DNA of 64,000 nucleotides from Candidatus Woesebacteria bacterium (GCA_016700095.1 CP065002.1:1060145-1124144); one strand, 5' to 3'; shown: positions 35,877-61,298, counted from the stretch's first letter. Notes: a model not told the origin generated them from the letters alone. Made by a program: numbers and translations.

Positions 35877-37400
35877 TTAAAATTTTGTATCAAATGTTAA
35901 ACGGTCCTCGTTTAAATTCCCGAGAGGTGAATACCTATCATACATACTACTTCCCATATCAATAATAATAACACTAGGTTCTCCCTGGTCTTCTTCTAAA
36001 ACTTTTAGGATTAAAAGCGAAAAAGCATCAGCAAGATCGTCATGTTTTTCTATTCCAAAACCAGTTAGTTGCATAAGTAGTTCTTCGGCTCCTTTTCTTG
36101 GGAAGCGTACTTTGCCCAGTTTTATAAGATGAGTAACAAGCGCAAGTCTTGATCTTTTATCTTGTCCTGATACTTTCACTCCTTCTGCGGGAACGTTATT
36201 ATTTTCCAAATGATGGATAAGAGCCGCTTGATATCCAACCTCTTCAATAAAAAGTTTTGTATATTGCCCGCTTCCCAGCTCTCTTGATAAGTCTTTTGCA
36301 AGCTCATATGTCTCAGGAAAACTTAATCTTTTATTGACCGGGAAAGGCAGTATATACACAGCAAGTTTATCGTTATATCCAAATACTTTTGCCGAAACCA
36401 TAGCAGTATAATCAGCCGATTCCTTTTGGGAAATAGCAAGGTCAATTCCAGTTGCTGTATACAAAAACTCTCTGTTGTCTTCGGGTGGAAGCACATCGTA
36501 ATATTGGATCCATTCGGGGTGAACAAGGCGGTCAGCGTCTGAAATTATCTTAAGTAAAAATTCTCTATACCAAGCGGATTCGCTTCCTATCTTTGATTTT
36601 AGATCATTTATTGATTCTTCGGTTTGAAATTTCTCAGGCCAAGCCACCCGACCTTCAGAACTAATAAGTGGATAAGAATAAAACTTGCCTTTTATCACAA
36701 GGTTTTCAATATTCTGCCTCAGTCTCATTAGAAGACTATCCTCGTGTAAAAGATTTCCAATAATCATGTATTTCGTATCACGATCTCCGATTGGTAAAAC
36801 CTCTCCTGTTAACCATTGATGTGTTTTGTCTCTTCCTTCACGGGTCTTAACGCTATTTAGATCCTCCACATCATCGCAAATGACTAAGTCTGGTCTATAT
36901 TGTTTATGTCTTAATCCTCTTATGCTTTGTTCAGATGATGCAACAGTAATTCTTGCTCCAAAGTTTGATAGTTCAAAAGTAGCAAGTCCTTTCTCATCTC
37001 CAGTTTCTTGAAATGGTCCAATGTCATTTTTAAGCAGTTCATTTCCTTCAAGCTCGTTTCTAATATTTGTCATTAGCTGTTTTGCCTGACTTTGAGTTTG
37101 ACTTAGTATTAAAACAAACTTTTTCTGTTGTTCGCCAATTATTGACCAGATGACATATGAGAGGGTGATAAGGGTTGATTTTCCTGATCCTCTAAATGCT
37201 ACAAGAACTACAAATTTATTATCCACGTCTTCTGTTATTTGAAACATTTCGGTGTGGAAGGAAGCAAATGGATAGCCAATGTAGTGAGATAGATAAATGG
37301 AGAAGAACCATTTATGGCTGTTTTTAGCAAGCATTCGTCTTACCGATCTTTTCTTCTTTATTGCCTCAAGCTCTTTATCAGAAATCACTTGTGCTGTCAT
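35877..37400 (-). CDS. terL: Phage terminase large subunit
   Basis: N-terminal ATPase Walker A VLVAFRGSGKSTLITL and a Walker B-like VICDDVED. The C-terminal part has a nuclease-like acidic pattern. Overlaps the upstream small-subunit gene by 4 nt. Confidence 0.85.
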   Translation of the reverse strand: MTAQVISDKELEAIKKKRSVRRMLAKNSHKWFFSIYLSHYIGYPFASFHTEMFQITEDVDNKFVVLVAFRGSGKSTLITLSYVIWSIIGEQQKKFVLILSQTQSQAKQLMTNIRNELEGNELLKNDIGPFQETGDEKGLATFELSNFGARITVASSEQSIRGLRHKQYRPDLVICDDVEDLNSVKTREGRDKTHQWLTGEVLPIGDRDTKYMIIGNLLHEDSLLMRLRQNIENLVIKGKFYSYPLISSEGRVAWPEKFQTEESINDLKSKIGSESAWYREFLLKIISDADRLVHPEWIQYYDVLPPEDNREFLYTATGIDLAISQKESADYTAMVSAKVFGYNDKLAVYILPFPVNKRLSFPETYELAKDLSRELGSGQYTKLFIEEVGYQAALIHHLENNNVPAEGVKVSGQDKRSRLALVTHLIKLGKVRFPRKGAEELLMQLTGFGIEKHDDLADAFSLLILKVLEEDQGEPSVIIIDMGSSMYDRYSPLGNLNEDRLTFDTKF

Positions 37401-37828
37401 TTATTTTCCTCCTCGTGTGTATTCGGCAGTAATGCCGCAAGTTTTAATGCTCTCGTTACCAATGCTTCTTGTTCTGGAGTAAGAGCTTCATTATCTGCTT
37501 TAAGCCTAGCCGTTACTTCAACTTTAGTTGCGTAATGAGGATGGTGGTGTTTCAGCCAGAAAATGATAGCTGTGAGGTTTTTGTCTCGGATCGCAGCCAT
37601 GAGCTGGGACTCAGCCATATCATTCACAAGTAATGAACCTTCAGCTATGGAAATGTCTGCTTGTTCTGCGAAGACTTCATTTTCCTTTCGCCATCTATAA
37701 TATGTTGCTCGACCAATACCAACTTTCTCACACGCAACTTGGACAATAGGCGTTTTCTTAAGTTGTTCAAGAAGTAATTCCTGAGTCTTATCAATCCGCT
37801 TCTGAATCGTAGTTTGATTATTTTCCAT
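37397..37828 (-). CDS. terS: Phage terminase small subunit (HTH DNA-binding)
   Basis: 143 aa. VACEKVGIGRATYYRWRKEN HTH. Position and coupling with terL. Confidence 0.6.
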   Translation of the reverse strand: MENNQTTIQKRIDKTQELLLEQLKKTPIVQVACEKVGIGRATYYRWRKENEVFAEQADISIAEGSLLVNDMAESQLMAAIRDKNLTAIIFWLKHHHPHYATKVEVTARLKADNEALTPEQEALVTRALKLAALLPNTHEEENK

Positions 37829-38573
37829 CTTTTATCCTTTCTGCTTTAATTCCAGAAACTTTTTCAAAGCGATCAATAATTACTTGGCAGTACTCCGGAT
37901 CTATCTCAACCATGAGGCATTTCCGTTTCGTTTGTTCGCAAGAAATAAGTGTTGATCCTGATCCGCCGAACGGATCATAGACATAGTCATTAACTTTTGA
38001 ACTGTTAAGGATTAAGTTTCGCAATAACCCAACAGGTTTCATGGTTGGATGAAGAGGACTTTTATTTGGTTTTGGATAAATGAGAATACTTTTGTCTTTT
38101 GCCTTATAGAATTCATGGCTTCCAAACCATCCGTATGCGATCAGCTCATGTTGTGGTAAATAGTGAAGCCGTCCGACGACAACATTGTTTTTGATCCAAA
38201 CAAGTAGTTGTGTAAGTCGAAAACCCGCATCAACAATGCCATCTCGCAAGGAGAACACCATTTTGTCTGAGTTAAAAATGTAAAAAGAATTTTTCTTGGC
38301 AAGATATGGCTTTATTGCTTCTAGCCATTCCTTCGTAAAATGGCGATACGTTCCTTCTGTTTGGTTGTGATCGTTGGCTATCTTTTTATTACTCTTAATT
38401 TCCGTAAGTTCAGCTTTTCCTTCAACATAAGCCACGCCGTAGGGCGGATCCGTCAGAAGGAGAGAGATTCGATCATCTAAAATAAGCCTCTTTAACAACG
38501 CTGAGTCTTTTGCATCTCCACACGCCAAGCGATGATCACCGAGTTGTAGAACATCACCTATTTTTATTTGCAT
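37818..38573 (-). CDS. DNA methyltransferase, N6-adenine/N4-cytosine class (DPPY)
   Basis: Motif IV LLLTDPPYGVAY and motif I VYDPFGGSGSTLISC. Confidence 0.85.
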   Translation of the reverse strand: MQIKIGDVLQLGDHRLACGDAKDSALLKRLILDDRISLLLTDPPYGVAYVEGKAELTEIKSNKKIANDHNQTEGTYRHFTKEWLEAIKPYLAKKNSFYIFNSDKMVFSLRDGIVDAGFRLTQLLVWIKNNVVVGRLHYLPQHELIAYGWFGSHEFYKAKDKSILIYPKPNKSPLHPTMKPVGLLRNLILNSSKVNDYVYDPFGGSGSTLISCEQTKRKCLMVEIDPEYCQVIIDRFEKVSGIKAERIKDGK

Positions 38574-39856
38574 AGCTTTGCCTCCTGTCCAGTCAACTTC
38601 TCGAAGCGCTTGATAATAAGGTCACAAAAAATAGGCTCAATTTCGCAAAGATATGCTCTGCGTTTGAGTTGTTCACACGCAATGAGAGTAGATCCGGAGC
38701 CACCGAATACATCAAGCACGATGTCTCCAGCTTTCGTGCAACGACGTAATGCTTTTTCATGGAGTGTTGGTGGTTTTTCTGTCGGATGTTCGTATTCTTG
38801 TGCAGGAAGACGTTTTGCTAGCCATATATTAAAAAGGTCAAGGATATCATCTGTCAGTCGATTTCCTGTTCCTACCTCTTTATTGAGAACCTCATTCAGG
38901 TTTTTGACTGATTCGGAAAGATACGGATTACCTTGAATACCATAAACGCATGGTTCATACACTTTATTAAATGCAGTTTGTGGAGTGACGTTCTGGTTAT
39001 TCTTAATCCAAAGACAAACTCGTTTGTTTATAATCCCAAGTTCCTTGTATATTCCCTGGATTAGTCCAATGTAATTTTCATCACACCAATAAAACACGTG
39101 TGCATCAGGAAAAGCAGTTGATAGCCCATTTTCAAGCGTTTTCTTGAGAAACGCTTTATATTCTTCTTCAGATTTCTTGTCATTCGTTTTCCCGCCATAT
39201 TTTCCATTTGTTCCAATCCCGTTGCTGTAATCGAGCGAGATATTATATGGGGGATCGCAGTAGAGCATGGATATCTTGTCATCCTGTACTAGCTTTTTGA
39301 GTACTTCGGGATCTGTCGCGTCTCCACAAATAAGTCGGTGCGATCCAAGCTGGTATATATCTCCCCATTTGCTTTTTGGTTCTTTGATCTTTTCAATTTC
39401 TTTTTTAACATCAAAGTCGTCATTTTCGACTCCCAAGTTATCATCCCAAATGTGTGAAAGATCGCTATCATCAAATCCAACATCAAGTAACAGCTCGACA
39501 TTAAATGATTTCAGAAGTTCAAAATCCCATTCTCCAGTATTGCGGTTAAGACGTAGATTCAACTCCTTTTCCTTCTGAAGATTGGGGATATTAACATAAA
39601 CTACAGGTACTTTTTCTATACCTAGTCTTTTTCCTACTTCGAGTCTGAAATGTCCACCAATTACAATATTTTTTCGATTAGATGCACCATTCGCAATAAT
39701 GGGATCTATCAATCCGAAGCGCTTAATACTCTCCGTTAATTGCTTGGCAGCTTCCTCATCCCATTTTCTTGGATTGTATTCAGCGGGGCGAAGTTCTTGA
39801 GCTGAAACATAAACGATAGAATATGGGTTCTCTTGTTTAGTATGTGCGTTCAACAT
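38564..39856 (-). CDS. ParB-like nuclease N-domain fused to a DNA methyltransferase (DPPY class)
   Basis: N-terminal ParB/Srx-like region (ELRPAEYNPRKWDEEAAKQLTESIKRFGLIDPIIAN). Then MLYCDPPYNISLDY and VLDVFGGSGSTLIACE. Confidence 0.85.
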   Translation of the reverse strand: MLNAHTKQENPYSIVYVSAQELRPAEYNPRKWDEEAAKQLTESIKRFGLIDPIIANGASNRKNIVIGGHFRLEVGKRLGIEKVPVVYVNIPNLQKEKELNLRLNRNTGEWDFELLKSFNVELLLDVGFDDSDLSHIWDDNLGVENDDFDVKKEIEKIKEPKSKWGDIYQLGSHRLICGDATDPEVLKKLVQDDKISMLYCDPPYNISLDYSNGIGTNGKYGGKTNDKKSEEEYKAFLKKTLENGLSTAFPDAHVFYWCDENYIGLIQGIYKELGIINKRVCLWIKNNQNVTPQTAFNKVYEPCVYGIQGNPYLSESVKNLNEVLNKEVGTGNRLTDDILDLFNIWLAKRLPAQEYEHPTEKPPTLHEKALRRCTKAGDIVLDVFGGSGSTLIACEQLKRRAYLCEIEPIFCDLIIKRFEKLTGQEAKLCK

Positions 39857-39906
39857 ACTATCAATAATAGGATGAAAAAGGGCTTGTGTATAAACAACAA
39901 TTGTGA

Positions 39907-40650
39907 CTAATTGATGTTGAGGCGTTTCTTGTAGCGGTTGATAGCTATATTTATTTCGTTGTAATCAAGTGAGTCACCAAATTCTTGCTGTATGATATCC
40001 CCAATATCCTTTTCCGACTTTCCTTCTTGTTCAAGCTCATAAATTCTTTGATCTCGGTCAAAGTTCTTAATAGGCTGGAACTTATCAGCCTTCCTATACA
40101 TTAAATCTTTCTGCATTCGCTTCACCCACGGCCAAATATGCCTGATGTCATTGAGGGTCGTATCGCCATCAATTTCAAGCGAAAGTCTTTTCATACCGTT
40201 TTCCCATGTCGTAACCATAGTTACTCCTGCGGTCAAGTTCAGATTATCGGGATCATTAAATAAAAGGTAGCGACGAATACCAGTGTGCCAACGTGGAGAA
40301 AGGCGATATTTTCTGACGACACCCCATACATCCTCACGAAATGCATGCATTGGAGCTTTAGCGTTACACTCTTTTCTTTTATCCTCAGCTTCTAGGAACT
40401 TTTTCTCTTTATTTAAGCTATCAATCTCTGCTCGACACTTCGGCCATTCTGTTTTGTAATACTCGTCAGTTGCAATATCAAGCTTATGATTCCATTCTAA
40501 ATTGTCATCCTCATTCTTTATTCCTTCGGAAGGAATATTCCATTTTTTCCTGAGGTCAGCAATTTCTTTCTGAAATGCAGGTCTGCTGACAAGCACTTTT
40601 ATTTCCTGTTTCAGTCGCTTCGTTTTTTCAGCAAAATAGTCTTTTTTCAT
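39907..40650 (-). CDS. Hypothetical protein (247 aa), divergent from the helicase gene
   Basis: ORF only. Charged and coiled-coil-like. Confidence 0.4.
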   Translation of the reverse strand: MKKDYFAEKTKRLKQEIKVLVSRPAFQKEIADLRKKWNIPSEGIKNEDDNLEWNHKLDIATDEYYKTEWPKCRAEIDSLNKEKKFLEAEDKRKECNAKAPMHAFREDVWGVVRKYRLSPRWHTGIRRYLLFNDPDNLNLTAGVTMVTTWENGMKRLSLEIDGDTTLNDIRHIWPWVKRMQKDLMYRKADKFQPIKNFDRDQRIYELEQEGKSEKDIGDIIQQEFGDSLDYNEINIAINRYKKRLNIN

Positions 40651-40723
40651 AGCCCATAATTCTAGCTTTATACATTCGTATTGTATATAATTCAGCTAAT
40701 AAAAGGAACAGCTTCAAATCACC

Positions 40724-43700
40724 GTGAATAATGATCAATTTATAATCAACACAAAAGTATTAGGTAATCCTATTAGGCAGGTTAATAAATCTGCTACATT
40801 TTCCGGCGATAAACCTAGAGCGTTAACACTTAGTAATAGAAGAATTGCTACATTCCCCAGATCTTGCGAAAAAGTAATTAAATCCTGGGATAAGCAATTC
40901 TCTTTCGTCGAAGAAAAACGAGAAAATGATCAAATTCTTGAAGAAGGATTGCGTCCGCCCCAAATCGGTGCACTCCATGCCGCACTCGCTCATTGGAAAG
41001 TAACAAACGCATCAGCCACCATTGTTATGCCTACTGGTACAGGAAAAACGGAAACAATGCTTGCACTTATGGTTTGCGAGCGAATAGATAAAATCCTAGT
41101 AGTTGTACCAACAGATGCGCTAAGAGATCAGATCACGAATAAGTTCCTAGGTCTCGGATTATTAAGAAAAATTGGAGCTGTTGGAAGGAAAGCAGAAAAT
41201 CCTATCGTGGGGACCCTCGAGCATCGACTCAAAACAGTAGATGAGGTAAATAAATTTTTTGGGTCATGCAATGTGGTGATAACGACAATGGCAATAGTAG
41301 GTGGATGCTCAGAAGAAATTCAAAAGGCAATGGCTGGAACAGCTACGTACCTTTTTATAGATGAGGCACATCATATTTCAGCACCAACTTGGCAAAAATT
41401 CAGAAAATTCTTCAAAGAAAAAACCATATTACAATTTACCGCCACACCTTTTAGAGGAGATGGAAGACATATTGATGGAAAGGTAATTTTTAATTATCCA
41501 TTACGAAAAGCGCAAAGCGAAGGGTATTTCAAGCAAATCAGTTTTATTGGTGTAAGAGATTATAATAAACAACGTGCCGATGAGACTATTGCCAAAAGAG
41601 CAATCAAAAAGCTGGAAGAAGACCTTGCACAAAATCTAGACCATATTATCTTGGCGCGAGCAGATAGTATAACTCGTGCGCGAGATATATTTGCTATTTA
41701 CCAACAACACGGCGCAAATCATAATCCTCAACTTTTTCATAGTAAGAAAAAAGTGGCTGAAAAACGCCAATCTCTTAATGAAATAAATGAAAGAAAATCA
41801 AGAATTATTGTATGTGTTGACATGTTTGGAGAAGGTTTTGACTTACCTGAATTAAAAATTGCAGCACTCCATGATGTGCATAAAGGTCTTGCCATTACAT
41901 TGCAGTTTACAGGAAGATTTACAAGAACAAAACCAAATATTGGTTCCGCAACGATTGTTGCAAATATCGCCAACCCTGGTGTTGAAGAAGCGTTAAAAGA
42001 CTTATATGCAGAAGATGCTGATTGGGATAAATTACTACGGAACTTAAGTGAAGGAGCGACTACCAAACAGGAAAAGCTATCTCAGTTTTTTGAAGGATTT
42101 GTGGATTTGCCTCCAGAATTCTTACCTCAAAATATTTTGCCTAAAATGAGCACTGTTGTTTATAAAACAAATAATACGCGGTGGACTCCCGAAAACATAC
42201 CAAAAGTAGTAAAAGAATCTAGGCTTTTTATTGACCCTACTGTAAATCAAGGAGAAAAAGTCGTGTTCTTTGTTACCTGCGAGAAAGAACCAATTTCTTG
42301 GGGCAATTTTAAGGATATCCATAATACGATTTGGGATCTGTATTTGATTCATTGGGATGAAGCTCAAAAATTATTATTTATCAATAGCTCAAACAACAGG
42401 TCCTTCCATGGGGAATTAGCAAAAGCTATTTGTGGCGATGATGTTGAAATAGTTCGTGGAGAACAAGTGTTTCGTACTCTCTCTGGGATCAATAGATTAA
42501 GCCTTATGAATCTTGGCTTAACACATTCCTTAAATCGAGCAATGCGATTCACAATGTATGTTGGATCAGACATACTATCAGCAATCTCGGACGCTCAGCA
42601 ACAAAATAGGATTAAATCCAATCTTTTTGGAAGAGGTTTTGAGAATGGTAGTAAAACAAGCATCGGGTCATCTTACAAAGGGAGGATTTGGTCTTATAAA
42701 ATAGCAGATGATATCTCGGAATGGATTGAATGGTGCCGAAAAACAGGCACAAAATTACTTGATGATACTTTTTCTGCAACAGATATTCTTAAATATGTAT
42801 TGCGCCCAACTTTAATAACACAACGGCCAAACCTCGTACCGCTAACAATAGAGTGGCCAGAAGACTTACTCTTGAAAAGCGAGGAAACTGTTGAACTAAA
42901 TATCGCGGGAGAGACGATTCCATTGTATGAAGCAGGTATTGAGTTAACGGACTTTAATAAAACAGGCCCAATAAAGTTCCAGGTTTTTAGTGAAAACAAA
43001 AGTGTTGAATATAAAATTGCATTTAATAATAACAATGTTGAGTATTTACCGACTGGGCAAGACACTGCACAAATTATAATTGCGAGAAAACCACAATCCC
43101 TTCCTGATTGGTTAAAAGAGAATTCTCCTATTGTTCGTTTTGAAAACGATTCATACCTACAATACAACGTTCTTTTTGAAAATCCTGCTGATCCGCCTGC
43201 ACCTTTTGATAAGGATAAGATTCAAATATGGGACTGGAATGGTATTGATTTGAGTAAAGAATCGCAGACAGTAAATAAAGATACTGACTCAATACAATAT
43301 CGAGTCATACAAGAGGCACTAAAGGATACCCACGATTCACAATATGATGTCGTTTTTGACGATGACGATTCCTATGAAGCTGCGGATGTAATAGGAATTA
43401 AAATGACAGAGGAGAAATTAATAGTTGATTTATACCATTGTAAGTTCTCCCAATCTGCCACTCCCGGAGCAAGAGTCGAAGATCTATATGCAGTTTGCGG
43501 TCAAGCACAAAAAAGTGTTCATTGGAGAGATGATATACAAAAACTTATCGATCACTTAACTTTACGTGAGGTGAGTCGACAAAAGAAAGGATTGGTTTCA
43601 AGATTTGAAAAAGGTGATTTAGAAAAACTCGAAGAAATAAGAAATAAAGTACCTTATCTTATTCCTGAATTTACAATCACAGTTGTTCAGCCAGGTTTAT

Positions 43701-43804
43701 CTAAAAACCAAGCAAGTAATAGTCAACTAGAACTACTCGCCGTTACAGAAAATTATCTTAAAGAAACACACGCAATAAACTTAGAAGTGATAGCCAGTCA
43801 ATAA
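40724..43804 (+). CDS. 1026-aa DEAH-box SF2 helicase with a large C-terminal extension containing a PD-(D/E)xK-like motif (Type III Res-like architecture)
   Basis: Q-like LRPPQIGALHA; motif I MPTGTGKT; motif II FIDEAHHI; motif III FTATPFR; motif V VCVDMFGEGFDLP; motif VI QFTGRFTR. The C-terminal region includes DVVFDDDDSYEAADVIGIKMTEEKLIVDLYHCKFS. Confidence 0.8.
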   Translation: MNNDQFIINTKVLGNPIRQVNKSATFSGDKPRALTLSNRRIATFPRSCEKVIKSWDKQFSFVEEKRENDQILEEGLRPPQIGALHAALAHWKVTNASATIVMPTGTGKTETMLALMVCERIDKILVVVPTDALRDQITNKFLGLGLLRKIGAVGRKAENPIVGTLEHRLKTVDEVNKFFGSCNVVITTMAIVGGCSEEIQKAMAGTATYLFIDEAHHISAPTWQKFRKFFKEKTILQFTATPFRGDGRHIDGKVIFNYPLRKAQSEGYFKQISFIGVRDYNKQRADETIAKRAIKKLEEDLAQNLDHIILARADSITRARDIFAIYQQHGANHNPQLFHSKKKVAEKRQSLNEINERKSRIIVCVDMFGEGFDLPELKIAALHDVHKGLAITLQFTGRFTRTKPNIGSATIVANIANPGVEEALKDLYAEDADWDKLLRNLSEGATTKQEKLSQFFEGFVDLPPEFLPQNILPKMSTVVYKTNNTRWTPENIPKVVKESRLFIDPTVNQGEKVVFFVTCEKEPISWGNFKDIHNTIWDLYLIHWDEAQKLLFINSSNNRSFHGELAKAICGDDVEIVRGEQVFRTLSGINRLSLMNLGLTHSLNRAMRFTMYVGSDILSAISDAQQQNRIKSNLFGRGFENGSKTSIGSSYKGRIWSYKIADDISEWIEWCRKTGTKLLDDTFSATDILKYVLRPTLITQRPNLVPLTIEWPEDLLLKSEETVELNIAGETIPLYEAGIELTDFNKTGPIKFQVFSENKSVEYKIAFNNNNVEYLPTGQDTAQIIIARKPQSLPDWLKENSPIVRFENDSYLQYNVLFENPADPPAPFDKDKIQIWDWNGIDLSKESQTVNKDTDSIQYRVIQEALKDTHDSQYDVVFDDDDSYEAADVIGIKMTEEKLIVDLYHCKFSQSATPGARVEDLYAVCGQAQKSVHWRDDIQKLIDHLTLREVSRQKKGLVSRFEKGDLEKLEEIRNKVPYLIPEFTITVVQPGLSKNQASNSQLELLAVTENYLKETHAINLEVIASQ

Positions 43805-49939: not shown

Positions 49940-50700
49940 ATCTTCTCACCCTACAGGTGATATAGCTTTACACATCTCCCTATTAATATTATATTTTAGT
50001 AATGCCCAATAAAAGATCAGTTGTATTTGCAACTAACGAAATCTATCACACGTATAACCGGTCGGTTGCCAACGAAGAAATATTTAATAATTCCAGAAAT
50101 ATAAACCGGGCCTTAGACCTTATCAATTATTACAAAAATCTTTCTAATTTGAGATTCTCGTATTTTGTAAAATTGAGTCAAGACAAGAAAAATGAACACC
50201 TCAAGTCTAAAAAAATCATTCCTCTTGTGGAAGTTTATGCCTTTTCCATAATGCCCAATCATTTTCATTTACTGGTAAGACAACTTTCCGAAAATGGGAT
50301 AGAAAAATTCTTATCAAATTTTCAAAACAGCTTTGCAAAATATTATAATATTAGAAACAAAAGATATGGAGCCTTGTTTCAGCGACCGTTTAAAGCGAAA
50401 CATGTCGCGGGTGACAAGGAATTACTACATCTGTCTAGATATATACATCTTAATCCCGTAACCTCTTTCATGTTGGATCTCGAGGAATTGAAAACAAGCA
50501 ACCTAACATCCTTTCCCCATTATTTGAAACCTGTAAATAACTTAGTGAATAGCGATTTAATTATAAAGCTTGCTGGTTCCAAAACAAAATATCTGCAATT
50601 TGTTTCAAATCAAGTAGATTATCAAAGGAAGTTGGGCAAGATCAATCATTTAATAATTAAAAAGTAAGTTGTGTAGCCTTATTTCACCCGTAGGGTGTAA
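49940..50700 (+). mobile_element. IS200/IS605-like unit: Y1 HUH transposase (RAYT-like) flanked by short hairpins
   Basis: The CDS at 50002..50667 carries the HUH motif IMPNHFHLLV and the catalytic Tyr region LSRYIHLNPV. Hairpins tcacc-ctaca-ggtga sit upstream and caccc-gta-gggtg downstream. Confidence 0.75.
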
Positions 50701-53987: not shown

Positions 53988-54044
53988 AGCAAACTAATTA
54001 ACTCTATTAAACTACCTGCCAAATAATATTTCCCGTACAACTTT

Positions 54045-54300
54045 CCCCTTTCTTTCTGGATTCCCTTTTTCAAGGGAATGACAACGTCTCTGTCACTCTC
54101 TGTTGTTTTCTGTCATCCTCTTCTGTTTTCTGTCATCCTCTGTTGTTTTCTGTCATCCTCAAAAAGCGTTTTGTCATTCCTGGCTTATGTTTTGTCATCC
54201 TCGCGAAGGCATATTGTCATCCCGCACTCGATGCGGGATCCAGTCCCCTTTCTTTCTGGATTCCCTTTTTCAAGGGAATGACAACGTCTCTGTCATCCCC
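54045..54300. repeat. Repeat cluster: two 60-bp direct copies (54045 and 54245), six spaced TTGTCATYC units and 8-bp-stem hairpins
   Basis: cccctttctttctggattccctttttcaagggaatgacaacgtctctgtca occurs twice. ttttctgtcatcctc occurs three times. The hairpins are atcccgca-ctcga-tgcgggat and atccccga-ctccga-tcggggat. Confidence 0.85.
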
Positions 54301-54601
54301 GACTCCGATCGGGGATCCAGTCCCCAGATAAATCTTTCCACTCTGGATTAACACTCTCAATCAATTCCAGTTTCCATGTCCTATTCCATTTCTTCAATTG
54401 TTTTTCTCGTACAAGAGCAGCCTCTATATCATTAGTAACTTCAAAATATACCAGCATACTAACATTGTGTTTTTGGGTAAAACCTTTAATTAAATGATGT
54501 TTATGTTCATACATCCTTCGTTCTAAATTATTCGTGACTCCTATGTAGAGTGTCCCGTTTCTTTTACTTGCAAGAATGTAGACATAATAAGTTTTGGCCA
54601 T
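54293..54601 (-). CDS. GIY-YIG nuclease (small URI-domain endonuclease)
   Basis: YYVYILASKRNGTLYIGVTNNLERRMYEHK. The C-terminal tail DWIPDRSRG is encoded by one of the hairpin repeats. Confidence 0.85.
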   Translation of the reverse strand: MAKTYYVYILASKRNGTLYIGVTNNLERRMYEHKHHLIKGFTQKHNVSMLVYFEVTNDIEAALVREKQLKKWNRTWKLELIESVNPEWKDLSGDWIPDRSRG

Positions 54602-54609
54602 ACAAATAG

Positions 54610-54965
54610 TATTAATGTCTAGATTCCCTTTTTCAAGGGAATGACAAAGAGACTACGCAAACAACCAAAGGATACAGGAATGACAAAGGTGAAAAGGAAT
54701 GACAATGTTGTTTTCTGTCATCCTCAAAAAGCGTTTTGTCATTCCTGGCTTATGTTTTATCATCCTCACGAAGGCATATTGTCATCCCGCACTCGATGCG
54801 GGATCCAGTGTTCTCCTGTCATCCCCCGCGAAAGCGTATTGTCATCCCGCACTCGATGCGGGATCCAGTCCCCTTTCTTTCTGGATTCCCTTTTTTCCTC
54901 CTTCGCTGATAGCTTCGGAAGGACACAGCAAGGGAATGACAAAAAGGCTGTAGAAATGACAACGA
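54610..54965. repeat. Second half of the repeat cluster. It includes a 104-bp direct copy (54704-54807) of 54123-54226 and more gaatgacaa/tgtcatcc units and hairpins
   Basis: Direct comparison of the two segments shows two mismatches. The ggattccctttttcaagggaatgacaa palindrome also recurs. Confidence 0.85.
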
Positions 54966-55833: not shown

Positions 55834-56589
55834 ATGAATCGACCTCGTTCCCTACTTGAACGTAAGTTCAAGACGCGCGCCATCCGGCGACAATTCGGTA
55901 ACGAGGTCTTTGTAACTTTATTATACACAACTGGTATCATAAGAATAATGGCATACGTTTTTATCGACGAAAGTGGAGATTTGGGATTTAATTTCCAGAA
56001 AAAGGGAACTTCAAGCTATTTTGTGATAACTCTTTTATTTAGCTCTACCAAACGTTCTGTTGAAAAAGTAGTCAAAAAAACATTCAGAAGTTTACCCGCT
56101 AAGGTACAGCAAAAACATACAGGCTGTCTACATGCTGTGAACGAAAAACCAAAAACTCGCATTAAACTGCTGAGTCTTCTCAACAAACAAGACATCTCAA
56201 TAGTCACGATATATCTTAATAAGAAAAAGGTCTATACCAGATTACAAGATGAGAAACACGTTCTCTATAATTACGTAACAAATATTTTACTAGATAGAGT
56301 CTATTCAAAGAAGCTGATTCCAACCAAAGGCCAAATACAATTAATCGCTTCTCAGAGAGAAACAAATAAGTTTCTTAATGCAAATTTTAAACAGTACTTA
56401 GAAAATCAGGCTAAAAATAATCACAAGCTAAATATTACTATTGAAATAAGACCATCCCACTCAGAAAAGGGTTTGCAAGCTGTCGATTTTGCATGTTGGG
56501 CAATTTACCGAAAAATTGAAAGGGGTGATTCTAGCTACATCAATATAATTAATAGCAGAATAATAGAAGAAAGCCCGTTGTTTCCTTAA
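55834..56589 (+). CDS. DUF3800-family protein; the likely true start is the internal Met at about 55948
   Basis: MAYVFIDESGDLGF is the DUF3800 N-terminal signature. Confidence 0.65.
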   Translation: MNRPRSLLERKFKTRAIRRQFGNEVFVTLLYTTGIIRIMAYVFIDESGDLGFNFQKKGTSSYFVITLLFSSTKRSVEKVVKKTFRSLPAKVQQKHTGCLHAVNEKPKTRIKLLSLLNKQDISIVTIYLNKKKVYTRLQDEKHVLYNYVTNILLDRVYSKKLIPTKGQIQLIASQRETNKFLNANFKQYLENQAKNNHKLNITIEIRPSHSEKGLQAVDFACWAIYRKIERGDSSYINIINSRIIEESPLFP

Positions 56590-56739
56590 AAAACAAAACC
56601 CTATGCGCTATTTACGAGCAACCATCCGGAAGCCCACGCATAAGGATTTACTTGTTAAATAAATTATACTTTACTTTGTCAAGAAATAACAATTCCCCCT
56701 CCCCTGCCAGATTGGTGAAAAAGTGGTAAAATAGCATCA

Positions 56740-57108
56740 ATGAATAAGCAATTATCAGACATCCAGAAACTGACTGCGAAAATTATTAAATTTCGAGATG
56801 CTAGAGATTGGAAACAATTTCATAACCCCAAAGACGTTTCGCTCTCTTTGGTGCTAGAGGCCACAGAAGTTATGGAACATTTCCAATGGAAGAGCAACGA
56901 AGAAATAGTTGAGTATGTCAAAACTCACAAAGAAGAAATTTCAGAGGAATTGGCCGATGTAATGTACTGGATACTTTTGTTGAGCCATGATCAAAACATA
57001 AACATATTTAGTGCCTTAAAAAAGAAAATTAGAAAAAATGAGCTAAAGTATCCCGTAAAAAAAGCTAAGGGAAATGCAAAAAAATATACTGAGTTAGAAA
57101 AATTATGA
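56740..57108 (+). CDS. MazG-like nucleoside triphosphate pyrophosphohydrolase
   Basis: EATEVMEHFQW and EELADVMYWILLL all-alpha NTP-PPase motifs. 122 aa. Confidence 0.75.
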   Translation: MNKQLSDIQKLTAKIIKFRDARDWKQFHNPKDVSLSLVLEATEVMEHFQWKSNEEIVEYVKTHKEEISEELADVMYWILLLSHDQNINIFSALKKKIRKNELKYPVKKAKGNAKKYTELEKL

Positions 57109-59027
57109 TCGTTTACTCTTCCACAAAAAGAAACTTCAATCTAGATGTTACGACAAATCAAATCGAAAAGTCTATATTGTCATCTTTTGTAAGAGAATTA
57201 GGGCATTCAACGGGTAAATCAGAAGTCGCATCATGGAGAAACTCCATGCTATATATGAACAATATTGTTTCGGATCCTGAAATTCCTGATGATACAGGAG
57301 TAGCAATTGAGTATAAAATTCCACGGACGACAAAAAGAATTGACTTCATATTAACTGGTGCAAATTCCGAACATAAAAAAACCGCCATACTCATCGAACT
57401 AAAACAGTGGAGCGATGGTGTTGCGATATCCGACAAAGATGGAATTGTAAGTACGAAGTTTTTCGGAGAAGTTAATCATCCCTCTTATCAAATATGGTCT
57501 TATGCAATGCTTTTGAAGGATTACAATTCCAATGTACAGGAACAAGACATTGCACTAAAACCATGTGCTTATCTACACAACTATGATCGTGACAATAATG
57601 ACGGTGACACTGTCATTGAAAATGAATTTTATAACGAATATCTTACTAAAGCACCTGTTTTCTTAAGGGAAGACATGCTGAAACTTCAAACATTTATCAA
57701 AAAATATGTGAAATATGGAGATAATGGAGATGTTATATATGCAATCGAAAACGGGAAGATACGTCCATCAAAAGCGCTTGCCGACAGTTTATCTTCAATG
57801 CTTGAGGGTAACAAGGAGTTTATTTTAATTGACGATCAAAAACTAGTATACGAAACCGCATTGAAGCTTGCCAGAGAATCAAATGAAAGCAACAAGAATG
57901 TTTTGATAGTGGAAGGTGGACCGGGAACTGGCAAGTCAGTAGTTGCGATTAACTTACTCACTGAATTAACCAATCGTGGACAAGTAACACAGTACGTAAC
58001 CAGAAATTCTGCACCTCGTGAAGTCTATCAGATTAAACTAACTGGGAAATTTACAAAATCTAGGATATCGAATTTATTTAGTTCATCTGGATCTTTTTAC
58101 AACATTGAACAAAATACATTTGATTCTCTGATCATAGATGAAGCTCACAGACTTAATGAAAAGTCTGGATTATTTAACCATCTTGGTGAAAATCAAATCA
58201 AAGAACTAATTAGTGCTGCAAAATTTAGTGTCTTTTTCATAGACGAGGACCAAAGAGTAACTTTAAAAGACGTCGGTAATATTTCAGATATCGAAACTAC
58301 CGCTGAACTACTCGGGGCAAAAGTACATAATCTTAAGTTAGCTTCTCAATTTCGCTGTAACGGATCAGATGGATATCTTGCATGGGTCGATAATACGCTA
58401 CAAATTCGAGAAACGGCAAACGAAACACTAGAAGATATTGATTATGATTTTAGAGTATTAGACAATCCGAATGCTGTTCATCAATTAATTATTGAAAATA
58501 ATAATGATAATAAATCCCGAGTGCTTGCAGGATACTGCTGGAATTGGGTAAGTAAAAATTCCCCAGAGTTGAAGGACATAATCATTGGTGATTACAAAGC
58601 CACTTGGAACCTTAATAAACACGGTCAAGCCTGGATTATTCATCCTGATTCCGTCAATGAGGTAGGGTGTATTCACACATCTCAAGGCCTTGAACTTGAC
58701 TATGTTGGGGTTATCATTGGCCCAGATCTAGTAATTCGCGATAACGAAGTTATAACTGATGCAAGTAAACGGGCAAGAACTGATAAATCCATCTTTGGAT
58801 ATAAAAAGATGTTGAATCAAAATCCTGTAAAAGCCCGAGAAATCACTGACATGATAATTAAAAACACTTATCGAACTCTGATGACAAGAGGCATGAAGGG
58901 TTGCTATGTTTATTGCACAGACACAGAAACACAAGAGTATTTTCGCAATAAACTTAGATCAAAAAAAACAGCTGGTACTGATTACGGAAGTATTCCATCA
59001 GGTGTTTCCGTTAACACTGATAAGTAG
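57105..59027 (+). CDS. DUF2075-type protein: an N-terminal PD-(D/E)xK-like nuclease domain fused to an SF1-like P-loop ATPase/helicase core
   Basis: N-terminal RIDFILTG...ILIELKQW has a D...ExK pattern. Walker A VEGGPGTGKSVVA. Walker B/DEAH-like LIIDEAHRL. The start overlaps the MazG-like stop by 4 nt. Confidence 0.7.
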   Translation: MIVYSSTKRNFNLDVTTNQIEKSILSSFVRELGHSTGKSEVASWRNSMLYMNNIVSDPEIPDDTGVAIEYKIPRTTKRIDFILTGANSEHKKTAILIELKQWSDGVAISDKDGIVSTKFFGEVNHPSYQIWSYAMLLKDYNSNVQEQDIALKPCAYLHNYDRDNNDGDTVIENEFYNEYLTKAPVFLREDMLKLQTFIKKYVKYGDNGDVIYAIENGKIRPSKALADSLSSMLEGNKEFILIDDQKLVYETALKLARESNESNKNVLIVEGGPGTGKSVVAINLLTELTNRGQVTQYVTRNSAPREVYQIKLTGKFTKSRISNLFSSSGSFYNIEQNTFDSLIIDEAHRLNEKSGLFNHLGENQIKELISAAKFSVFFIDEDQRVTLKDVGNISDIETTAELLGAKVHNLKLASQFRCNGSDGYLAWVDNTLQIRETANETLEDIDYDFRVLDNPNAVHQLIIENNNDNKSRVLAGYCWNWVSKNSPELKDIIIGDYKATWNLNKHGQAWIIHPDSVNEVGCIHTSQGLELDYVGVIIGPDLVIRDNEVITDASKRARTDKSIFGYKKMLNQNPVKAREITDMIIKNTYRTLMTRGMKGCYVYCTDTETQEYFRNKLRSKKTAGTDYGSIPSGVSVNTDK

Positions 59028-59030
59028 TTA

Positions 59031-59723
59031 ATGACCAAAAAAACTATTCAAAAGCATATTGGAGAAGGCCACCGAAAAAGACTGAGGGATAAATTTTTAA
59101 ACGCTGGTCTTGACGGATTTTTGGATTATGAAGTTGTTGAATTACTACTAACTCTTGGCACCCCTAGAAAAGATTGTAAACAACCCGCAAAAGAAGCAGT
59201 AAAAAAATTCAAAGGACTACTGGGTGTATTGGATTCATCACTGGAGGAATTGCAACAAATAAAAGGTATTGGACCTTCAAACGCATTTGGAATCAAGCTA
59301 TTTCAAGCAGTGTCTAAACGATACACTAAAGAAAAACTTACACCCACAACACTTCTTAATTCACCGCAATCAATATTTGAATATTTAAGAGAGCGAATAG
59401 GGAAAGAAAAAAAAGAACACTTTTCAATTATGTGTCTCGACACTCGCAGTAATTTAATCATCGAAGACGTATCAGTTGGAATTCTCAATGCCAGCCTTGT
59501 CCATCCTCGTGAGGTTTTCAAAAAAGCAATTCTCAATAATTCATCTTATGTTGTACTTGCACACAATCACCCGTCTGGTGATCCAACTCCGTCCAGTGAT
59601 GATATTATAACTACGAGAAGACTTGTTGAATCCGGCAAGATTCTTGGCATTACAGTTGTCGATCATCTAATTATTACTAAAAATGAATTTGTCAGCTTGA
59701 AAGAGAAAGGCTTCATTCAATAG
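59031..59723 (+). CDS. radC: RadC-like JAB/MPN domain protein
   Basis: N-terminal HhH LQQIKGIGPSNAFGIKL. JAMM motif HNHPSGDPTPSSDD. Only 4 nt after the DUF2075 gene. Confidence 0.85.
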   Translation: MTKKTIQKHIGEGHRKRLRDKFLNAGLDGFLDYEVVELLLTLGTPRKDCKQPAKEAVKKFKGLLGVLDSSLEELQQIKGIGPSNAFGIKLFQAVSKRYTKEKLTPTTLLNSPQSIFEYLRERIGKEKKEHFSIMCLDTRSNLIIEDVSVGILNASLVHPREVFKKAILNNSSYVVLAHNHPSGDPTPSSDDIITTRRLVESGKILGITVVDHLIITKNEFVSLKEKGFIQ

Positions 59724-59912
59724 GAGCTAATCTACATAACCATCCAGTAATTCGCTCGAACCTCCAGAATGTCTAATAAAACAAAATCTTCTCTTTTCTT
59801 GGGCAACAACTATGTTACAACATCATTCACAACACATTGAAGCACAGCACTACGGCTTCGTCGTAGTGGCTATCTTTAATTGATGAAAATATTCCTATAA
59901 ATATCTGACGAC

Positions 59913-61298
59913 ATGAGAAGTAATAAAATTTTGTATAATAGCGTCATGGAAGCACAGGAATTTAATAAAACAATAAAAAGTATTAGTAATTCTTCAATAA
60001 AGGAGCTTTATCTCCTTATGGATAAAAATAAATTAACTTCAGATAAGAAAATCTACGACTATTTTGTTAATACAAGTTTTGAAAAAGTTTTAGAAATCAC
60101 AACTGAAGCATATATCATAACAACCACAACTAACAATTATATAAATCCATCATTATTTAACTTCTCAGCATCCATTTCCTTAAGCGGTGGAGATAAATCC
60201 TGTGGTGCATGGGAATGTAGAATAAATAAAGTACAGGAAATAGCAGCTTTTTCTTCACTTTATGCCGATACTCTGACTCTTCATAATCCTTTTGACTTTG
60301 TGTATTTCTATATAAATCCTGTAAACAACTTTCGCATTGCTGAAAGAAAATTTAGAAACGAGTCTATAGTTGCTTTTTCAATAGCATTAAACTTCAAATA
60401 CCTAATTGAAAGAAAGCTAATGTTGTTTTCTAAAACAACAAATTTAATGTGTAGTGAATGTGTCACCAAAAAAGATCAATATTTATTGTCAATAGAAAAT
60501 AAATTAAAAGATATTGCAAAGAACAAACTCTATCCAATTATTAATAATTTTGACATTAAATACGGAGATAATTTCTATAATTTAGAGGGGATCAAAGATA
60601 TTCTTGGAGAGGAAATATTTAATCATTTCGAAGTTTTTCCTAAATATCTCATAAAAGATGGAATAAAAGTTAACAACACTAGACAATTAAAATATGATAA
60701 TTATTTAATACAAAATTTAATCGGAAATGCGATAAATAGTTTGTTGTTTCAAAAATTTGGGAACATTAATGCAGTCAGTCAAACTTATCTGACAACAAAT
60801 TTGTTTGAATCAAGATTATTAGAAAATCTAGGAAGTACATCGGAAAACAACACTCTGAATCTTTTAGCACATGGATTACCTGTATTACAGAGTAAATCAC
60901 TTGAAGATATAATAAAAATTAGAGAAAAACATAAAGATGAATTCATCTCATTTAGAGAACATCTTTATGATATTTTAGAAAAAGCTAGTTTCTTTAAAAC
61001 ACAAGTTGAATATAACGCTTTTGTAAACAATAAATTATACTCTGAATTGAAAGATCTTATACAAATTCAGAATGAAGCAAAAAAGAAATTTATAAGAAAA
61101 GGATTCATTACAGGAGTTTTTTTGAGTGCTATTGCTATCCCAACAGCAATAGATCCATCTACCAAAGATATTATATCAACACTCTTAACTATATATAATT
61201 GTAAGGAATTTTATAATAGCGTTACTGAAAAAGAAAAACAAATTACTGAATTGCCTATATATTTCTATTTTAGACTTACAGAATCTTTGTCTGAATAA
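59913..61298 (+). CDS. Hypothetical protein (461 aa)
   Basis: ORF only. Asn/Lys-rich. Confidence 0.45.
   Translation: MRSNKILYNSVMEAQEFNKTIKSISNSSIKELYLLMDKNKLTSDKKIYDYFVNTSFEKVLEITTEAYIITTTTNNYINPSLFNFSASISLSGGDKSCGAWECRINKVQEIAAFSSLYADTLTLHNPFDFVYFYINPVNNFRIAERKFRNESIVAFSIALNFKYLIERKLMLFSKTTNLMCSECVTKKDQYLLSIENKLKDIAKNKLYPIINNFDIKYGDNFYNLEGIKDILGEEIFNHFEVFPKYLIKDGIKVNNTRQLKYDNYLIQNLIGNAINSLLFQKFGNINAVSQTYLTTNLFESRLLENLGSTSENNTLNLLAHGLPVLQSKSLEDIIKIREKHKDEFISFREHLYDILEKASFFKTQVEYNAFVNNKLYSELKDLIQIQNEAKKKFIRKGFITGVFLSAIAIPTAIDPSTKDIISTLLTIYNCKEFYNSVTEKEKQITELPIYFYFRLTESLSE

Follow-up and report, generated by a model that had tools for sequence, protein, structure and literature searches.

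A MazG-like/nuclease-helicase/RadC gene cassette in a Candidatus Woesebacteria genome as a candidate mobile defence operon

In a 64,000-nucleotide (nt) stretch of the genome of a Candidatus Woesebacteria bacterium, a member of the Patescibacteria (GCA_016700095.1, CP065002.1:1060145-1124144), hereafter the window, a plus-strand cassette of three genes encodes a MazG-like nucleotide pyrophosphatase, a 640-amino-acid (aa) nuclease-helicase built around a DUF2075 ATPase, and a RadC family protein. We consider this cassette to be a horizontally mobile accessory operon that most likely acts against invading DNA, whether of phage or plasmid, and that belongs to the Nhi-like class of nuclease-helicases, a reading to which we assign a rough probability of 0.55. 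It is carried by the recurrence of the gene pair across many bacterial and some archaeal phyla, by the relation of the nuclease-helicase to a verified defence protein and by the changing genomic surroundings of close relatives; moreover, the catalytic motifs of the nuclease, the ATPase, MazG and RadC are under strong constraint.

The MazG-like gene (56740-57108, +) encodes 122 aa of an all-alpha nucleoside triphosphate (NTP) pyrophosphatase of the DCTPP1/RS21-C6 type, and its TGA stop codon (57106-57108) is interlocked with the ATG at 57105 of the nuclease-helicase gene (57105-59027, +, ending in TAG), giving an ATGA overlap at 57105-57108 (+). The nuclease-helicase consists of an N-terminal PD-(D/E)xK-like domain, a superfamily 1 (SF1) ATPase (DUF2075/SLFN-g3_helicase) and a short C-terminal tail. 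Both open reading frames (ORFs) and their overlap had been noticed in an earlier sequence-only reading of the window, and the ORF calls agree with it on the plus strand; that reading took them for a two-gene unit, which was not borne out, since it had overlooked the RadC family gene (59031-59723, +; 230 aa, with UPF0758_N/HhH and JAB domains) as third gene. The RadC start lies 3 nt past the TAG of the DUF2075 gene, and the cassette is bordered by 150 nt of intergenic space 5' of the MazG-like ORF and 190 nt 3' of the RadC ORF. In the NCBI annotation the MazG-like gene is 7 codons shorter, at 115 aa, so that its start codon is uncertain by 21 nt.

Relatives were sought in one genome per species, over 185,579 species, and at least 600 matched stretches were found, of which 597 of 600 encode a relative of the 640-aa protein. 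The best 80 of these at least 600 stretches share 56-73% identity and come from lineages of the candidate phyla radiation (CPR, Patescibacteria), Desulfobacterota, Geobacterales, Bacteroidota, Verrucomicrobiota, Elusimicrobiota, Melainabacteria and one Methanobacterium. Among the 79 loci with an intact helicase gene that these best-matching stretches provided, 70 have a MazG-like ORF upstream in the same orientation (directly in 67, and with RadC in between in 3); the remainder are 3 loci cut by a contig end and 6 without MazG. The gap between the two genes is -4 to +4 nt in 37 of the 42 loci with the short form of the helicase protein, and 11 have the ATGA overlap. Since 70 of 79 loci from many phyla keep the order and 37 of 42 the spacing, the juxtaposition of MazG and DUF2075 is far beyond chance, and the operon structure, judged by its distribution, is ancient, widespread and strongly maintained. 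The coupled layout proposed by the sequence-only reading is thus upheld well outside the window.

Archaeal plasmids also carry the pair, as in Halalkalicoccus, where a 'nucleotide pyrophosphohydrolase' is followed by a 'DUF2075 domain-containing protein', and a more distant branch in Priestia has the order DUF3578-MazG-DUF2075. A conserved gene 5' of MazG was sought in the related loci and none was found, MazG being the first gene of the operon in most of them. Among 2.9 million viral contigs of IMG/VR no relative was confirmed, and a close copy is present in a single 'phage' record, that of Microcystis phage Mwe-JY31 (22 kb), again with MazG upstream. Additional genes accompany the pair in some loci: a TPR protein of about 650 aa was seen in eight, translationally coupled upstream of MazG in three of them (L027, L029 and L032), and a second, divergent DUF2075 paralogue stands directly downstream of the first in others (L032:7905-9782, L048:7878-9851 and L084:8098-9987).

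The N-terminal part of the 640-aa protein is, on several lines of sequence comparison, well supported as a predicted PD-(D/E)xK nuclease. Its core (aa 38-157; 57216-57575, +) is marked out by invariant residues, secondary-structure order, weak Pfam matches and profile alignment with hhalign. In an alignment of 27 sequences reaching down to 31% identity, E69, R78, D80, E98, K100, W102, H125 and Q129 are among the invariant residues, and E69/D80/E98-x-K100, which are also invariant in an alignment of 59 homologues, correspond to the PD-(D/E)xK signature; the putative catalytic codons lie on the plus strand at 57309-57311 (E69), 57342-57344 (D80), 57396-57398 (E98) and 57402-57404 (K100). The two peptides on which the sequence-only reading had based a restriction-endonuclease fold, RIDFILTG and ILIELK, are indeed present and carry D80 and E98-x-K100, respectively. 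In a full-length AlphaFold model built from an alignment of 59 homologues (predicted local distance difference test, pLDDT, 75), the block means of pLDDT across residues 61-160 are 69-94, and helix 38-55, strands 65-71, 78-86 and 92-100, helix 126-140 and strand 150-157 follow one another, with D80 on strand 78-86 and E98-x-K100 at the end of strand 92-100. An alpha-beta-beta-beta-alpha-beta succession is the canonical order of PD-(D/E)xK nucleases.

No Pfam family scored above threshold in the N-terminal 255 residues; the sub-threshold matches of the 27 sequences fall almost only in the PD-(D/E)xK clan, with NERD in seven of them and DUF2726, RE_endonuc, Tox-REase-9, HSDR_N_2, PDDEXK_9 and Endonuc_Holl as further hits. 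When the PDB was searched with the 640-aa sequence, no match was returned, and the Foldseek results of the full-length model are dominated by the helicase domain. The restriction-endonuclease-like N-terminus thus stands as a prediction from its signature, the order of strands and helices and the clan of its weak Pfam matches. Taken alone, the domain forms 1,817 clusters at 50% identity and, among the matches listed, occupies the N-terminus of proteins of 617-1,068 aa, the shorter matches having the look of fragments.

In the second domain, PF09848 (DUF2075, now SLFN-g3_helicase, Schlafen group 3 DNA/RNA helicase) matches residues 264-606 (57894-58922, +) over all model positions (1-354 of 354) with 359 bits against a cut-off of 24 and an E-value of 4e-107, and this SF1 ATPase/helicase domain is also supported by invariant motifs and by Foldseek. 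Walker A (GGPGTGKS, aa 271-278; 57915-57938, +), Walker B (DEAH, aa 345-348), HTSQGLE (aa 524-530) and TRG (aa 594-596), which we take to be the SF1 motifs, are invariant in 59 homologues. With the full-length model, Foldseek found RecD2, IGHMBP2, SLFN11, Dna2 and Upf1 at E-values of 1e-8 to 1e-6, and a search against viral structures gave generic SF1 helicases only. The DUF2075/SF1-like ATPase named by the sequence-only reading is accordingly confirmed, and the model confirms an SF1B-type helicase fold for this domain, with unwinding as a prediction. The helicase family PF09848 is shared with the C-terminal part of the eukaryotic Schlafen group 3 proteins SLFN5, SLFN11 and SLFN13 (Foldseek, SLFN11, 7zel, 2.2e-7), whereas the window protein differs from them in its N-terminus, which is PD-(D/E)xK-like and not the Schlafen/AlbA_2 tRNase; a Pfam search of the 640-aa protein for AlbA_2, the Schlafen RNase domain, gave no match.

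The protein ends in a tail of about 20 residues (aa 619-640; 58959-59024, +) that is disordered in the model (pLDDT <50) and holds the motif Y..(D/S)G(A/V)S.N.D, in which Y627 and D639 are nearly invariant. This motif occurs in 13 of 13 loci with RadC downstream, in none of the 3 with RadC upstream and in none of the 29 short forms without RadC, a few of which have unrelated extensions; all 13 proteins form one clade, so the association of tail and RadC is not statistically independent.

The placement of this protein among known defence systems rests mainly on the Nhi-like protein of Bacillus cereus FSL H8-0482, listed as 'Verified' defence on the basis of a single cloned gene (Millman et al., 2022; bioRxiv 10.1101/2022.05.11.491447, supplementary files 11 and 26). 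The reference was compared over 399 of its 611 residues, as given in that supplement. BLASTP aligned the window protein with it at 22% identity over 355 aa (E 7e-6), collinearly from residue 10 to Walker B, and hhalign aligned the N-terminal domain with it at 96.9% probability (E 1.6e-10), with the E-Y..R.D..IE.K motifs in register. By both comparisons, the window protein is a remote member of one superfamily with this verified defence protein. The two share an N-terminal restriction-endonuclease-like domain with E..D..ExK followed by a DUF2075 ATPase; they differ in that the Nhi-like protein is active as a single gene, whereas the gene for the window protein stands between those for MazG and RadC in an operon, and the protein ends in a clade-specific tail.

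Nhi itself (SERP2475, Staphylococcus epidermidis; Bari et al.) likewise unites a PD-(D/E)xK nuclease and an SF1B-type helicase overlapping DUF2075 in one polypeptide directed at phage DNA, but it belongs to another sequence family, and the portion of that report available to us describes no MazG or RadC partner. Consistent with this, the PADLOC models for Nhi (PDLC02372; model positions 179-331 of 470) and AbiO (174-330 of 468) match the P-loop core only (residues 237-419, E 1e-13 to 3e-14). The PADLOC candidate PDC-S41 gave a partial match in two stretches (E 7e-16, 55.6 bits), the best of which joins residues 18-298 to model positions 15-271 of 657 and so includes the N-terminal domain. The resemblance to single-protein nuclease-helicase immunity factors suggested by the sequence-only reading is thus retained through the homology to the verified Nhi-like protein, but not as membership of the Nhi family proper.

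The MazG-like family assignment of that reading was also borne out, by a PF12643 score of 60.6 bits (cut-off 27) and by PDB matches over essentially the whole length, the best being an archaeal pyrophosphatase (4qgp, 1.4e-20) and mouse and human DCTPP1 (1e-17). In 73 partner copies from related loci, the metal-binding residues E40, E43, E46, E70 and D73 are at least 95% conserved, and the DCTPP1-like motifs RDWxQFH and, at the C-terminus, KYP..KY are conserved as well. With DCTPP1/RS21-C6 and 4qgp the protein thus has in common a whole-length alignment, the EXXE..EXXD metal-binding residues, RDWxQFH and KYP..KY; unlike them, it is encoded in an operon with nucleases and is reduced to a minimal domain, the catalytic region alone, to which neither a sensor nor a regulatory part is attached.

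Four close homologues of this MazG (about 70-74% identity) lie directly upstream of, respectively, DUF2075, DUF2075-S24, a protein annotated NmeDI_C and RadC alone (the last two combinations in L098:4001-5396 and L095:4001-5021 between them). The NmeDI_C annotation, a restriction-enzyme domain, was not reproduced for this partner protein in a repeat Pfam search. In a more distant branch, a B. thuringiensis plasmid has the gene order NTP-PPase, HNH, helicase. As its close homologues adjoin several different DNA-acting proteins, the MazG clade behaves as a portable partner of DNA-targeting enzymes.

The third position of the operon is more variable. In the window it is held by RadC, recognized by NCBIfam PRK00024 (210 bits, cut-off 180) and PF04002 (1.1e-41), whose JAB metal-binding motif HNHPS..PS..D (H178-N-H180-P-S..P-S..D191) is intact and conserved. 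Adjacency to RadC is confined to a CPR-centred clade, with 13 loci in the order MazG-DUF2075-RadC and 3 in the order MazG-RadC-DUF2075. Long forms of the helicase protein (760-832 aa), present in 35 of the 79 loci (about 44%), have an extra C-terminal Peptidase_S24 domain (e.g., L019:1895-4300, and also L025, L027 and L067); these fusions, relevant to regulation, had escaped the sequence-only reading. When the S24 region was aligned with E. coli LexA and UmuD sequences, the GxSM serine, the catalytic lysine and an upstream AAG were matched. This AAG falls on LexA Ala-Gly and UmuD Cys-Gly, which we take to be the self-cleavage sites.

Long-form relatives therefore resemble LexA/UmuD-type S24 autoproteases in having a domain with the Ser/Lys dyad and AAG, whereas the window protein has no S24, the corresponding place being taken by RadC as a gene of its own. 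Still other loci encode an EEP nuclease or a second DUF2075 paralogue at this place, and in some it is empty. It appears that an autoprotease domain predicted to respond to RecA often takes the position of RadC where RadC is absent, and the fusions suggest that activity in those relatives would be gated by RecA bound to single-stranded DNA (ssDNA). That RadC might act proteolytically on the conserved C-terminal tail, in analogy to S24, is speculation.

The accessory and mobile character of the cassette follows from its unrelated flanks, from plasmids and from neighbouring restriction-modification, TIR, Fic and toxin-antitoxin genes. In six close homologues (68-75% identity) the MazG-DUF2075-RadC triad is complete in 6 of 6 contigs, each time in a different flank: between alaS/ruvX/yceG and rpoB; within a gene block that also encodes Fic, NERD, RE_endonuc, an integrase and a Cas4-like PDDEXK_1 protein; in an island between tuf and fusA with TIR_2, RHH and Bro-N; beside GreA; beside dnaX; and beside a HigB/HigA-like pair with HNH and PDDEXK_1. 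The tuf/fusA island (L088:4187-13027, a Patescibacteria contig) is about 9 kb long, also contains a gene with an RNase_H_2/DNA_pol_B_exo domain, and sits inside an otherwise conserved str/S10 ribosomal region.

Plasmid copies were found in Hymenobacter, where the cassette directly follows a restriction-modification system, and in Marivirga, Methanosphaera, Halalkalicoccus and Priestia, in the last between a restriction endonuclease and type I restriction-modification genes. Neighbours of the modification-dependent-restriction type (HNH_2, PLD-ResIII-DUF3427 and DUF3883) occur in some loci, and the adjacency of DUF3427-DUF3883 enzymes to DUF2075 has already been noted (PMC6765204). In the window, the neighbourhood of the cassette is likewise a variable region, and base composition gave no sign of recent acquisition. 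Broad conservation as a housekeeping pair, which would have told against the sequence-only reading, is not what we observed: the pair is broad but patchy, with six flanks among six close relatives and with copies on plasmids and in islands.

Within the favoured reading of an operon against invading DNA, the 640-aa protein would be the effector: foreign DNA or replication intermediates would be engaged by its SF1B-type motor and cut by its N-terminal nuclease. The MazG-like enzyme would be a deoxynucleoside triphosphate (dNTP) pyrophosphatase, supplied in fixed proportion through translational coupling (termination-reinitiation) and acting on the nucleotide pool beside the nuclease. RadC in the window, and the fused S24 autoprotease in relatives, would form an interchangeable third, regulatory module, and in the S24 forms activity would be tied to RecA-ssDNA and hence to DNA damage or phage replication.

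What MazG does in the operon is conjecture. Mammalian members of the DCTPP1 family prefer dCTP and 5-modified dCTPs. It is possible, and we offer it tentatively, that the targets of the enzyme are dNTPs of the 5-substituted-dCTP type, non-canonical or modified, which are used by phages or released from degraded modified DNA; their destruction would block their re-use and their entry into host DNA. A triggered depletion of canonical dNTPs by MazG seems to us rather doubtful. Modified-dNTP hydrolysis is weakly favoured over such depletion because this MazG is of the minimal house-cleaning type, because of the stated preference of the DCTPP1 family and because several unrelated nucleases are accompanied by it. 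The depletion role put forward by the sequence-only reading is accordingly only one of several possible readings for a bare DCTPP1-type house-cleaning domain without a regulatory part.

A wider conception, which we regard as unlikely, would make the MazG clade a portable 'nucleotide-pool guard' that travels with DNA-degrading restriction nucleases (DUF2075, NmeDI-like, HNH, RadC) and hydrolyses phage-type modified dNTPs, providing a two-layer defence against base-modified phages with no self-sensitisation of the host, while S24 (through its AAG) or RadC acting on the tail would be the proteolytic switch that arms the nuclease-helicase on RecA-ssDNA or phage intermediates.

Several points weigh against a defence operon of this kind. 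The functional statements on this clade are all inferred from sequence, which does not reveal the substrate preference of MazG, and the homology to the Nhi-like protein is remote, at the 22% identity given above. Since that protein works as a single cloned gene, MazG and RadC are dispensable in its branch. A domain-only AlphaFold model of the N-terminus, made from a truncated alignment of 14 sequences, had a pLDDT of 49 and a best Foldseek E-value of 0.3, and a PDB profile search with the domain returned only spurious armadillo-repeat proteins. Neighbours of the modification-dependent-restriction type are confined to about 4-8 of 80 loci, and several loci lie amid ordinary housekeeping genes with no recognisable defence neighbour. 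Furthermore, CPR organisms are uncultured and their phages little known.

Part of this evidence would suit the main rival, an SOS or DNA-repair module in which damaged or stalled DNA is the substrate of the helicase-nuclease, MazG clears damaged nucleotides from the dNTP pool, and the module as a whole is tied by RadC or S24 to the RecA damage response. The LexA/UmuD-type S24 of the long forms, with its Ser, Lys and AAG, speaks for it, as do the place of MazG in the house-cleaning DCTPP1 family, a mutT two genes upstream in a Priestia locus, the loci amid housekeeping genes and the lack of a confirmed relative in IMG/VR. We nevertheless judge it improbable. The distribution is patchy, with at least 600 matched stretches among 185,579 species genomes, and 56-73% identity across phyla indicates horizontal transfer; plasmid copies, differing flanks in close relatives, restriction-modification, TIR, Fic and toxin-antitoxin neighbours and homology to a verified defence protein all point away from repair, and S24 would be equally suited as a sensor of phage replication.

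We give no greater weight to a version developed from the sequence-only reading, in which MazG, as the effector, would deplete canonical dNTPs or NTPs upon infection in the manner of the dCTP-deaminase and dGTPase defences, and the DUF2075 protein would serve mainly as a sensor of foreign nucleic acid that activates MazG. Translational coupling suggests a complex of fixed ratio; MazG domains have been predicted, not validated, as NTP-targeting defence effectors (DefensePredictor, PMC13092281, 2026) and predicted as a rare substitute effector in PUA-HAD systems (PUA-Cal-HAD preprint, 10.64898/2026.01.15.699771); and the helicase domain of SLFN11 acts as an ssDNA sensor (PMC13056530).

The MazG studied here is, however, a bare domain of 115-122 aa, closest to constitutive house-cleaning enzymes, and its partner should not be just a sensor, because the nuclease residues are invariant. 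Moreover, nucleases lacking an ATPase sensor are also found as partners of this MazG clade (an HNH protein and the protein annotated NmeDI_C, with the reservation made above on that annotation), and the Nhi-like relative defends without MazG. Known or predicted nucleotide-depleting defences (dCTP deaminase, dGTPase and the predicted MazG- or Calcineurin-CE-based ones) resemble the cassette in having a (d)NTP-attacking enzyme in a defence-like context; those are stand-alone or sensor-fused and triggered by infection, whereas the pyrophosphatase of the window has no further domain, is coupled to a DNA-degrading motor and shows no evident trigger.

A selfish addiction cassette resembling toxin-antitoxin pairs, with the nuclease-helicase as a toxin restrained by MazG and/or RadC and retained through post-segregational killing, appears very unlikely. 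Tight coupling, mobility, a partly plasmid-borne distribution, frequent toxin-antitoxin neighbours and the layout of a small upstream and a large downstream gene would fit it, but the full catalytic site of MazG is unusual for a pure antitoxin, the partner is exchangeable or absent (in 6 of 79 loci the helicase gene is retained although MazG is missing), and there is no DNA-binding autoregulator. Finally, four-base overlaps are common in compact CPR genomes, and a chance overlap of neighbours with no functional link could be argued from this; the recurrence of order and spacing in 70 of 79 loci, in many phyla and archaeal plasmids and whatever the flanks, effectively refutes it.

As to expression, a weak promoter-like site (CTGCCA-17-TAAAAT with TG; 56704-56732, +) ends 8 nt 5' of the MazG ATG, and a weak terminator-like hairpin with a 9-bp stem (59848-59868, +), between RadC and the next ORF at 59913, is the probable end of the operon; scans for promoters and terminators found such sites in the region to be not commoner than in shuffled sequence. 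Because the ATG at 56740 is only 8 nt past the promoter-like -10 element, the MazG-like mRNA could be leaderless. Directly upstream of the cassette lies a DUF3800 gene (55834-56589), and directly downstream a gene of 461 aa (59913-61298) that is very AT-rich (27% guanine plus cytosine) and has a weak DUF6236 match only. Both were considered as parts of the system and rejected, as neither is kept beside the cassette in other loci, and for the same reason they probably belong to this variable region as cargo independent of the cassette.

Farther upstream, an IS200-like Y1 transposase gene (50002-50667; PF01797, 1.9e-7) is found about 6 kb from the cassette. At 54044-54950, a small minus-strand GIY-YIG gene (54293-54601) is flanked on both sides by 20-nt tandem units and by several families of direct repeats, which are 52-104 nt long and reach 98-100% identity; these surroundings look like a cluster of repeats resembling miniature inverted-repeat transposable elements or repetitive extragenic palindromes around a homing-type nuclease gene. 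The region 35877-43804 begins with a phage-derived minus-strand block (35.9-39.9 kb) comprising a terminase-large-like gene (weak match), an HTH_Tnp_1_2 gene (possibly small-terminase-like) and two N6/N4 DNA methylases, one fused to ParB_N, and continues with a plus-strand gene for a ResIII/SNF2-type helicase of 1026 aa (40.7-43.8 kb); the region may be what is left of a prophage, or a further locus of defence or anti-defence.

In our literature search we found no description of the MazG-DUF2075 pairing, of the triad with RadC or of the S24 fusion, which does not prove them undescribed. As a class, nuclease-helicases whose motor is of the DUF2075 (Schlafen) type have been proven to act as single-protein phage defences, but they are poorly understood; the core effector type is in that sense already known. 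To this class the present analysis adds a very large cross-phylum branch that is almost always co-translated with an enzyme of the dCTP-pyrophosphatase type and whose third module is exchangeable and protease-like. Should MazG prove to take part in immunity, a MazG-type component of a defence system would be validated for the first time, and DNA degradation would be linked to control of the nucleotide pool. From the S24 fusions comes a concrete hypothesis, open to test, on how such nucleases may tell infection from normal DNA metabolism. In addition, the cassette provides a candidate defence system for Patescibacteria (CPR), the immunity of which is little known.

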